Shown here: in pieces, positions 19,261 through 24,576 of the stretch | How the letters are laid out: the number at the start of each line of letters is the position of its first letter | Position numbering within the stretch: the stretch's first letter is position 1 | Source of the DNA: an uncultured Bacteroidales bacterium | GTDB lineage: Bacteria > Bacteroidota > Bacteroidia > Bacteroidales > CAYFUP01 | NCBI GenBank assembly: GCA_964496465.1 | Contig: CAZBZX010000003.1 | Span: forward strand, 1 to 36,047 | Length of the DNA stretch: 36,047 nt | Direction of reading: 5' to 3' | Notes under the pieces: generated by a model | Database searches by the model: none | The model's input: only the letters and a program-made list of their open reading frames with translations | Told to the model about the DNA's origin: nothing | Position numbers and translations under genes: made by a program

Positions 19261-21591
19261 TTATTTACTTATTAATAATTTTTTTTGTGATAACTGGTTT
19301 CCATTGATTACTTTAACTATATAAATTCCCTCATTATTGTGTAAAGTAATTTTATTGTAAAGACTTGAAAGTCTTTGTACATAAATTTGTTCTCCTAATA
19401 AATTATATACCTCTATAAAAGCATTATCTGGAATAGAACCAAAATTGATATAAATACAATTTAAATTAGAATAGATAAATATGTCATCGGAATTAATATG
19501 ATTAATATTTTCAGGTTTCTCTTTTTCTTTAATGTAATAACTTGCTCCTGTAAAACTTAGTTCTCTAATAATAGTGTTTGTAACATTACAGACGTATTTG
19601 TGAAAATTTTCTTTGGTTAAAGCAGAAATGATGAAAATCGAATTATCAGGACCTGATATAGGTTCATAGATAATATCATTTCCAAATTGGTTCCATGTGA
19701 AAATATTATGTTCACCTCCATATATCTTCGATTCTAATACTACACGGTCTCCGATATTTAATTCAAGCGTTCCGAAATAGCCACTAGCCCCTTGTTCCTG
19801 ATAAAATAAAGGTACATGAAATAGTTCAATATTTGGTTCCAGATCTTCAAATGTCAACATATTTCTGCGAACGTAAATTTGATCAGTTTTTAGATCAGTC
19901 AGGTTTGGCAAATCTTCTAATTGGTTTTCTGATAAATCAATGAATTTTAATTTTTGCAGATTATTAAGTGATGAAGGAACAGACAATAAACCATTTGCAT
20001 AAAAATTTACATCTTCAAGTTTTATTAAATTTCCAATAGAAGACGGGATATCTCCTGATACCTTGTTTTCATAACTATGATATTTTACCGATCCGCCTAG
20101 AATGAAATATTTTAGATCACTTAATAAACCAATTTCATCTGGCATTGTACCTCCTAAATTGTTACTGACCGGACAAAGCGCAACGACACGCCCGTTTTCA
20201 ACTCTAACCCCATGCCAATCATTGCTGATGTTGTTTACTTTATCTTCCCATCCTGTTTTTGTAATCCATGAATCGTTACCAGTAGCTTCATAAAAAGCCA
20301 TCAACGCCTCAAAATCATCTTGATTTGAGGGTTGAATTTTAAGATAAACACTGGCAGTATCTTTGCCTTGGCCATCATCTACTTCATAAGAAAATTCATC
20401 ATAACCCGGGCTCGTTTTATTCGATTTATAGATTACCCGGTTACTCTTTTGATCAATACTTACTGTTCCATTTTTTGGCTTATTAGCAATTTTGAGGTAC
20501 CAGGAGTATTTGTCACCATCAAGATCAAAATCATTTAACAGGACATCTAAAAATGAATCTGAATAGGGTAAAACTGTCAGGGTATCATTTTGTGCTATGG
20601 GTGAATTATTTGCATGAATGATAAAATTTAAAAATTGAACAAAAGTGTCAATTTTATTTATTACTTCAACTTTAATACTAAAGCTTCCTTGTTCAGTTGG
20701 AATTCCATAAATTTGAATTGTTTGAGCATTAAATTCTAATCCCGCTGGTAAGGTTTCTTTATCTACATTCCAACTATATTCCCCAATATATCCTGTTGAT
20801 TTTAATTTGGTAATATAGTATGCATTTTGATAACCAGGTGGTAAATCATTTTCAATTTTAAATGAATCAATTTCTGCTACCCAGTTTTCAGGATTATTGG
20901 AATATAAATCCGGGTAAATTTTTGTAATACTAAAAACAGCATTCTCAATTACTGGCCAAGGATTTTTGTTATTATAGTCAGTCTCATCAATTAACATATA
21001 GGGAATAATAGTTTCACCATTATTCTTATATGGATCGCAAGGTTTTAAAATGGCTAGTCTTTCTCCTTCATTAGCAAGATTGCCATTATAATTAAAAACT
21101 AAATCATCATTATTTAAATTTTTAAGTGACTTAAATTCAGCAATGGTAATATTTTCATTAATTAGGTAAATTGCATCTCCAGCATTAACAGTTATATTTC
21201 GAGGAAATTCAAAATCAATTCCATCAATTTTCCATGTATTCTCCGGATTTTTTAAATTGTACAAATGAACGTTATCACCATTAATATTTATGAGTTGAAT
21301 ATATTCAATCCCATTTTCAAAGCTTTTATACCTTATTGAATTAAATACAATAGGGCCAATTAAAGGGCTTGCATTTGTATCATTAAAACTACTTTTTTTA
21401 AAGATTACAAATTGTTCTTTATGTTGAGAAATGTACCTGCCTATTGTCAGAGAAGTATCCAAATAATCATATGAAAAACCATGCACAAAACCAGTTATCT
21501 CGCTTAAAGAATTGGTCGAAAAAATATAAACTTCTTCTCCTTTTGAGCTTAGTGAAAAACCACTTCCAAATTCATCAGCTGTAAATTGCAT
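19261..21591 (-). CDS. LTD / Ig-like / cadherin-like / plant-type LRR / T9SS-CTD protein fragment (frame open upstream to 21855)
   Basis: - Lamin-tail domains: ...GIEYIQLININGDNVHLYN....
- He_PIG-like Ig: LPAGLEFNAQTIQIYGIPTEQGSFSIKVEV.
- Cadherin-like: NNSPIAQNDTLTV...LNDFDLDGD...DEFSYEVDDGQG.
- LRR with plant-type cap: WHGVRVENGRVVAL...NKVSGDIPSSIGNLIKLE...LSENQLEDLP.
- T9SS CTD: ...GIYIVKVINGNQLSQKKLLISK.

There is no signal peptide. The first ATG lies inside an LTD. Confidence 0.75.
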   Translation of the reverse strand: MQFTADEFGSGFSLSSKGEEVYIFSTNSLSEITGFVHGFSYDYLDTSLTIGRYISQHKEQFVIFKKSSFNDTNASPLIGPIVFNSIRYKSFENGIEYIQLININGDNVHLYNLKNPENTWKIDGIDFEFPRNITVNAGDAIYLINENITIAEFKSLKNLNNDDLVFNYNGNLANEGERLAILKPCDPYKNNGETIIPYMLIDETDYNNKNPWPVIENAVFSITKIYPDLYSNNPENWVAEIDSFKIENDLPPGYQNAYYITKLKSTGYIGEYSWNVDKETLPAGLEFNAQTIQIYGIPTEQGSFSIKVEVINKIDTFVQFLNFIIHANNSPIAQNDTLTVLPYSDSFLDVLLNDFDLDGDKYSWYLKIANKPKNGTVSIDQKSNRVIYKSNKTSPGYDEFSYEVDDGQGKDTASVYLKIQPSNQDDFEALMAFYEATGNDSWITKTGWEDKVNNISNDWHGVRVENGRVVALCPVSNNLGGTMPDEIGLLSDLKYFILGGSVKYHSYENKVSGDIPSSIGNLIKLEDVNFYANGLLSVPSSLNNLQKLKFIDLSENQLEDLPNLTDLKTDQIYVRRNMLTFEDLEPNIELFHVPLFYQEQGASGYFGTLELNIGDRVVLESKIYGGEHNIFTWNQFGNDIIYEPISGPDNSIFIISALTKENFHKYVCNVTNTIIRELSFTGASYYIKEKEKPENINHINSDDIFIYSNLNCIYINFGSIPDNAFIEVYNLLGEQIYVQRLSSLYNKITLHNNEGIYIVKVINGNQLSQKKLLISK

Positions 21592-21855
21592 TGTTGTGTC
21601 AGCATAATGCCCTTCATAAAAGGTCAGGAATCTACCAGGTAAGATGATTGAATTTTCAGGAATTTTCCATTTTGCAGGTATGTTAAAATTATCCGTTAAA
21701 TACCATCCACTAATATTAACTTCCTGCTTATTAGGATTAAATAATTCAATGGCATCAACAGTTGGATAATCAGACTGACTTAATATTTCGTTAATATAAA
21801 TCGGTAAAATAATTGATGTTTCGTCTTTAATATTTGGGGAACCATTTATAGTGTT

Positions 21856-24387: not shown

Positions 24388-24576
24388 AATGGGTTTAATT
24401 AGGTTTGCCAAAATTTTCGTTATGCTTTAAAGACGCAATTTTTATATATTTCCCTTACCATTGGTAAAAATCATCAAAATAAGCAATATATTAATATTAT
24501 ATGGAGATCATTTAAAATTAACTATGCATAAGTTCTATATAAACTTAAGTATTTAATAAGAAATCAAGTAAATGGG

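Follow-up and report, generated by a model that had tools for sequence, protein, structure and literature searches.

A single in-frame TAA splits what reads as one gene for a large CotH/lamin-tail-domain cargo protein in an uncultured Bacteroidales bacterium

Results

One open frame interrupted by a single stop codon

We analyzed contig CAZBZX010000003.1 from an uncultured Bacteroidales bacterium (assembly GCA_964496465.1) over its full length of 36,047 nucleotides, which we refer to as the window. As judged from its sequence, the region 24387..19261 on the minus strand is one gene for a cargo protein of the type IX secretion system (T9SS), about 1,700 residues long, split by a single TAA codon. 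In a list of open reading frames (ORFs) the gene appears as two pieces on the minus strand: 21856..24411, with 851 amino acids from a TTG, and 19261..21591, with 776 amino acids from an ATG. A preliminary description of the window had placed both ORFs in one frame, with one internal TAA at 21856-21858, and translation of 24411..19261 agrees: there are 1,717 codons, and the only stops are that TAA and the terminal TAA. Read in the other two frames, this stretch has 123 and 242 stops. The likelier start is ATG 24387 or ATG 24366, rather than TTG 24411. From ATG 24387 the upstream piece is 843 amino acids long, and the translation after the stop is 864 amino acids long.

The internal TAA lies at 21858..21856 (minus strand) in the context GGT GAT TCC TGG AAT GCT TAA AAC ACT ATA AAT GGT. 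In protein terms, the peptide that spans it is YNSGDSWNA-x-NTINGSPNIK, where x is the stop position; an example of a peptide from the downstream half is DETSIILPIYINEILSQSDYPTVDAIELFNPNK. After the stop the frame stays open for 864 sense codons, one fewer than the preliminary description had counted, and its claim that such a run exceeds chance holds. With a G+C content of 31% in this region, base composition gives a stop probability of 0.083 per codon, and an open run of this length has P ~3e-33. The first 88 of these codons (NTINGSPNIKDET...HYADTT), which precede ATG 21591, have P ~5e-4 on their own. The hand translation of these 88 codons in the preliminary description was reproduced exactly. 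They contain no ATG, GTG or TTG, also as described, and the first such codon is codon 89, which is ATG 21591 itself.

Homologs are single proteins with serine in place of the stop

Searching a collection of 5.8 billion proteins with the joined translation gave 2,462 matches. The three best, which we call P0001 to P0003, are uninterrupted proteins of 1,757-1,808 amino acids with 36-41% identity, 88-100% query coverage and the same domain families. They include leucine-rich-repeat (LRR) families, and P0001 also has a Por_Secre_tail domain. The proposal that the two ORFs form one polypeptide of about 1,700 residues is thus borne out by its closest homologs.

We then compared a 280-residue segment around the junction, by BLASTP, with the best 120 of the 2,462 homologs. 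Alignments cross the junction in 117 of the 120, and all 117 have serine at the stop column, so that the long single homologs have a sense codon exactly where the window has TAA. More than 600 residues precede this serine and more than 300 follow it in 111 of the 117, and none of the 117 starts or is broken at the stop column. An alignment of 37 homologs by MAFFT shows the region of the stop to be among the best conserved (...NWRAS-S-AINGSPGADD...INEIL...DAIELYNPN...). The TAA replaces the invariant serine of a W-x-A-S...GSPG motif at the C-terminal edge of the first lamin-tail domain (LTD1), about 20 residues before the second (LTD2). The stop had been described as sitting in a linker between two LTDs; it does fall between them, but in a conserved motif and not in a free linker.

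Because serine occupies this column in all 117 homologs and TCA is one step from TAA, we infer that a single substitution at window base 21857 turned TCA into TAA (C to A on the coding strand, G to T on the plus strand). TCA is the sole serine codon one step from TAA, and also the commonest serine codon in the gene (43 of 129). In its sequence the gene looks like a pseudogene made by a premature stop, with an in-frame stop at a sense codon of its homologs and homology that continues in frame on both sides of it.

Domain architecture of the interrupted gene

The proposed domain order is signal peptide, CHB_HEX_C, CotH kinase-like domain, lamin-tail domains, immunoglobulin (Ig)/cadherin-like domains, LRR, Ig and T9SS sorting domain. 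The features predicted in the gene are as follows, all on the minus strand.

24387..19261 (-): the entire gene with its single internal TAA; 1,708 codons, starting at ATG 24387 and running up to the terminal stop (TAA, 19263..19261)
24295..24387 (-): signal-peptide-like N-terminus (MKSSTRKMLFYTLSTILFFLLVPFSISNIFS); by eye, a basic n-region followed by a hydrophobic core
24016..24261 (-): CHB_HEX_C_1 / Fn3_assoc beta-sandwich, residues 43-124; Pfam PF13290 (E=1e-7) and PF13287 (E=3e-6)
22693..23694 (-): CotH kinase-like domain, residues 232-565; Pfam PF08757, 67.3 bits, above the gathering score of 23.8, over profile positions 2-308 of 322
21967..22293 (-): LTD1, residues 699-807; Pfam PF00932, 53.5 bits (cut-off 34.3)
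21856..21858 (-): premature TAA; probable ancestral codon TCA (Ser), changed base 21857
21592..21855 (-): 88 sense codons covering the N-terminal two thirds of LTD2 (translation and Pfam)
21400..21801 (-): LTD2; Pfam at post-stop residues 19-113, 55.0 bits (cut-off 34.3); modeled sandwich at residues 20-152
21589..21591 (-): ATG called as the start of the 776-aa protein; Met89 of the post-stop translation, in strand E88-90 of LTD2
20344..20799 (-): He_PIG and Big_9 / cadherin-like Ig, post-stop residues 353-504; PF05345 (E=2.7e-6) and PF17963 (E=7.9e-14)
19888..20163 (-): leucine-rich-repeat region, post-stop residues 565-656; Pfam LRR_14, 17.4 bits, below the cut-off of 40
19576..19761 (-): Ig-like domain, post-stop residues 699-760; Pfam Ig_3 (E=1e-4), below cut-off
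19270..19452 (-): T9SS type A sorting domain, post-stop residues 802-862; TIGR04183, 31.3 bits (cut-off 23)

The two ends of the gene match their description: a signal peptide is found only at the far N-terminus, where it was recognized by eye, and a sorting domain only at the far C-terminus, where the last 61 residues pass TIGR04183 (the Pfam model PF18962 stays below its cut-off, with 20 against 27 bits and E=8.5e-4). As the sequence stands, the signal peptide and the sorting domain that mark a T9SS cargo protein are on different polypeptides, and they are united only if the TAA is ignored. The LRR content claimed for the gene is only partly upheld. LRR Pfam families are present in the full-length homologs P0001-P0003, but the window's own match is below the Pfam cut-off and is accompanied by weak NCBIfam matches to LRR type III effectors.

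The downstream ORF begins inside a lamin-tail domain

LTD2 straddles the ATG from which the downstream ORF is called. Its Pfam match vanishes when translation begins at ATG 21591. We modeled the first 198 post-stop residues with AlphaFold2, using an alignment of 22 homologs, and obtained 10 strands with a mean predicted local distance difference test (pLDDT) score of 81. In the model LTD2 is one continuous beta-sandwich from residue 20 to residue 152, with Met89 inside a strand where the local pLDDT is about 91. The best matches of the model in PDB are the tail domains of lamin A/C (1ifr) and lamin B1 (3jt0), with probabilities of 0.99-1.00 and template modeling (TM) scores to the target of 0.51-0.56, though with E-values of only about 6e-3. 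LTD2 thus combines a PF00932 match above the gathering score with an Ig-like beta-sandwich fold.

Since the Pfam match is lost from the ATG and Met89 lies within a modeled strand, the downstream "gene" starts in mid-domain, as the preliminary description had said. That description had the LTD completed by the first 30 or so residues of the downstream ORF; the domain does extend across the ATG, but in the model about 63 further residues are needed in addition to the 88 post-stop codons. The N-terminus of the downstream ORF (MQFTADEFGSGFSLSSKGEE...) has no hydrophobic core, as judged by eye, so this piece appears to lack a signal peptide, again in line with the earlier account.

Absence of further lesions and of relaxed constraint

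There is no second stop or frameshift in the 2,592 nt downstream of the TAA, where 5.5% of the possible single substitutions would create a stop. This bounds neutral divergence since the event (95%) at about 2% if only substitutions are counted, and at about 0.6% if indels occur at 20% of the substitution rate. Among columns that are at least 90% conserved in the homologs, the window gene keeps the consensus residue at 175 of 202 upstream of the stop and at 67 of 81 downstream. Its identity to P0002 and P0003 is 50% upstream and 42% downstream, and P0001, an intact control, likewise has 63% and 53%. By these comparisons of sequence there is no sign of relaxed constraint downstream.

Genomic neighborhood

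A 144-aa ORF without a Pfam match (18820-19254, minus strand) starts 6 bases after the terminal stop of the CotH gene, on the same strand, and may be co-transcribed with it. Beyond it, at 16395-18668 (minus strand), is a gene for a 757-aa UvrA-like double ABC ATPase (ABC_tran, UvrA_DNA-bind), which is shorter than canonical UvrA. Its relatives, with 45-68% identity, occur patchily in metagenome-assembled genomes (MAGs) of Bacteroidales, Chitinophagales, Spirochaetota, Fibrobacter and Methanomicrobiales, and then in Paenibacillus, Lentzea and Streptomyces. This taxonomic patchiness suggests a horizontally mobile UvrA paralog.

Further along, 14834-16378 (plus strand) encodes a second candidate T9SS cargo protein of 514 aa (Por_Secre_tail, 47.4 bits, plus matches to DUF3836 and RHS repeats), and its sorting domain suggests that the organism uses a T9SS. 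The region 11503-14696 (plus strand) encodes a 776-aa protein like TonB-dependent receptors (CarbopepD_reg_2 and Plug), followed by a DUF4249 protein. Just upstream, at 9622-11388, is a pair consisting of a LytS-type histidine kinase and a LytTR regulator, in which the TTG of the regulator comes directly after the TAA of the kinase, without a change of frame. The two are ordinary neighbors, not one gene split in two. Two same-frame adjacent ORF pairs (9583-10681/10684-11386 and 27620-27242/27239-26750) were rejected as further splits, each ORF having complete domains and the second starting directly after the stop of the first. On the other side of the CotH gene, 27629-31912 (minus strand) encodes a 1,427-aa hybrid sensor kinase with at least six PAS_9 stretches, HisKA, HATPase_c and a receiver domain.

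The whole window has about 30% G+C. The closest relatives of its genes in the collections are distant, with a best identity of 41% for the CotH gene and 68% for its UvrA-like neighbor, and the window seems to come from a lineage that is otherwise unrepresented there, probably within Bacteroidales. Searching genome contigs for the exact DNA pattern across the stop, with the stop codon replaced by NNN, gave no match, and a 23-mer from the conserved DAIELFNP stretch gave none in metagenome contigs. A protein scan of metagenome contigs with the junction region found nothing close (best match 34-38% identical). The UvrA-like neighbor was also searched for in genome contigs, with 10 kb flanks, and tblastn showed no CotH gene beside it in any of 80 loci; its best relatives there, from Bacteroidales MAGs, are only 67-68% identical.

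Discussion

Origin of the stop codon

With no second lesion and no sign of relaxed constraint downstream, the change is either very recent or not real. On balance we lean towards a genuine, very recent nonsense mutation. The gene would then be either a pseudogene of young age or an allele without function that dominated in the population sampled. The majority of bacterial pseudogenes are young, and inactivation often strikes large surface proteins. Apart from this gene the window is clean: no other gene is split and the remaining 24 long ORFs have complete domains, which argues against a generally error-ridden assembly. A sequencing, assembly or consensus error, such that the organism itself has TCA and an intact gene of about 1,708 residues and only the deposited contig has the TAA, is the less probable of the two explanations but one to be taken seriously. 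Several points weigh for an error and against a real mutation. The sequence itself does not tell a real substitution from a consensus error, and the flawless downstream half, with its 864 codons intact and its conserved residues kept as well as those upstream, is equally what an error would give. The change is of a single base at an invariant serine, and G to T is a known oxidative-damage artefact of library preparation. The searched collections of genomes, metagenomes and proteins yielded no sister strain, and the window is the whole contig of an uncultured-type lineage, probably from a MAG. Genes that count as pseudogenes in public assemblies on account of an internal stop are in many cases artefacts of assembly, above all where coverage is low (PMC11017572). 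Against an error, the window's coding sequence, about 32 kb in all, has no other lesion of this kind, only about 5% (about 1 in 18) of random substitutions create stops, and consensus substitution errors in short-read assemblies are rare. On priors, a real nonsense allele would be somewhat likelier.

Every explanation other than a nonsense allele or a consensus error we regard as improbable. The preliminary description had left four options for the TAA; a recent nonsense mutation, a strain variant and an assembly error still stand, and functional read-through is argued against. If a suppressor tRNA or a context-dependent mechanism recoded the stop, the full-length protein would still be made, possibly as a regulated minor product, and such a product would be needed to unite the signal peptide with the T9SS domain. 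This need and the intact downstream frame are the only points in favor. However, the marks of read-through or reassignment are missing. TAA is the ordinary terminator of 20 of the 26 long ORFs in the window, a tRNA scan found no tRNA gene in these 36 kb, and folding of the 131 nt that surround and follow the stop gives no more stability than in shuffled sequences (z = +1.3; 180 of 200 shuffles were as stable or more so), so there is no 3' RNA structure. Nor is the stop a conserved feature, because no homolog is broken at this column and all 117 have serine. Of the stop codons UAA leaks least, and it is not known to have been reassigned in any bacterium. Read-through is therefore very unlikely. 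We attach as little weight to the idea that the TAA is real and either tolerated or used, of which there are two versions. A TCA/TAA polymorphism could act as an on/off switch, with both alleles of a large surface protein kept in the population, for example under pressure from phages or predators; or a truncated periplasmic signal peptide-CotH-LTD protein could be kept while low read-through supplied a little of the surface-displayed full-length protein.

Least credible of all is that there are two real genes, a CotH-LTD protein of 836 or 843 aa and an Ig/LRR/T9SS protein of 776 aa, separately expressed and functional. An NCBI-derived protein collection has an entry of its own for each piece, and natural CotH + LTD homologs of about 950 aa do exist, but those end in a T9SS domain of their own, which the upstream piece here lacks. 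The downstream ORF begins within a beta-strand of LTD2, loses the LTD match and has no hydrophobic N-terminus, whereas the 88 codons before its ATG are open and homologous to LTDs. No homolog begins here, and 111 of the 117 continue well beyond the junction on both sides. These results effectively refute the two-gene reading. A scan of 18600-24700 for promoter and terminator consensus sequences found fewer promoter-like sites than in shuffled sequences and nothing at the junction, and is uninformative.

Consequences and annotation

If the nonsense mutation is real, translation would end after residue 843. The truncated product would keep the signal peptide, the CotH domain and LTD1, and could be exported by Sec and reach the periplasm. 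Because it would lack the C-terminal sorting domain, it would not be exported across the outer membrane by the T9SS or anchored at the surface. The 864 downstream codons, with the Ig, LRR and T9SS half of the protein, would not be made in a useful form, because translation could begin only at ATG 21591, in mid-domain, and would give a product without a signal peptide. The strain would then have lost a surface-displayed CotH-LTD protein, one more recent inactivation of a large T9SS surface protein. Should the stop be an error, no explanation would be needed.

In either case a premature stop is in itself ordinary and nothing categorically new, and the practical value of the result is a correction of annotation. 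The NCBI-derived collection lists the fragments as proteins of 836 aa (from ATG 24366) and 776 aa (from ATG 21591). These two calls are a mis-annotation; the fragments should be joined in the record and marked there as a single gene that an internal stop interrupts. What bacterial CotH-LTD proteins do is a question that the window gene makes no more testable.

Comparison with known systems

By its sequence, the gene is a new and divergent member of a widespread, functionally uncharacterized group of multidomain CotH/LTD T9SS cargo proteins in Bacteroidota and Ignavibacteriota. These share its domain order (CHB_HEX_C/Fn3_assoc, CotH, LTDs, He_PIG/Big_9, LRR, Ig, Por_Secre_tail) and include P0001 (1,767 aa, GCA_975959875.1) and proteins named "lamin tail domain-containing protein" from MAGs of Bacteroidales, Prolixibacteraceae and Melioribacteraceae. 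The window gene differs from them in being only about 41% identical and in having TAA where they have serine. The P0001 locus (L081 3924-9227) is flanked by genes for PFK, ThiF, a radical SAM protein and a tricorn-like protease, and some 3 kb upstream of it lies a gene for a LytTR response regulator. The locus is not syntenic with the window, as no neighbor of P0001 has a counterpart beside the window's CotH gene, and P0001 is probably not a positional ortholog. A literature search on CotH, LTD, T9SS and bacterial read-through found nothing specific to the CotH/LTD family.

The gene resembles young pseudogenes with a single premature stop in having one in-frame stop, homology that continues in the same frame and no other lesion. 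It differs from them in that its TAA may not be a real mutation at all. The gene also resembles the spurious internal-stop pseudogenes of Cooley & Wright 2024 (PMC11017572): its stop is isolated and due to one base, the gene is otherwise intact and seems to be under constraint, and the contig is a draft or metagenomic one. In that study, spurious internal stops were tied to assemblies that have many of them, whereas the window has one in 26 genes.

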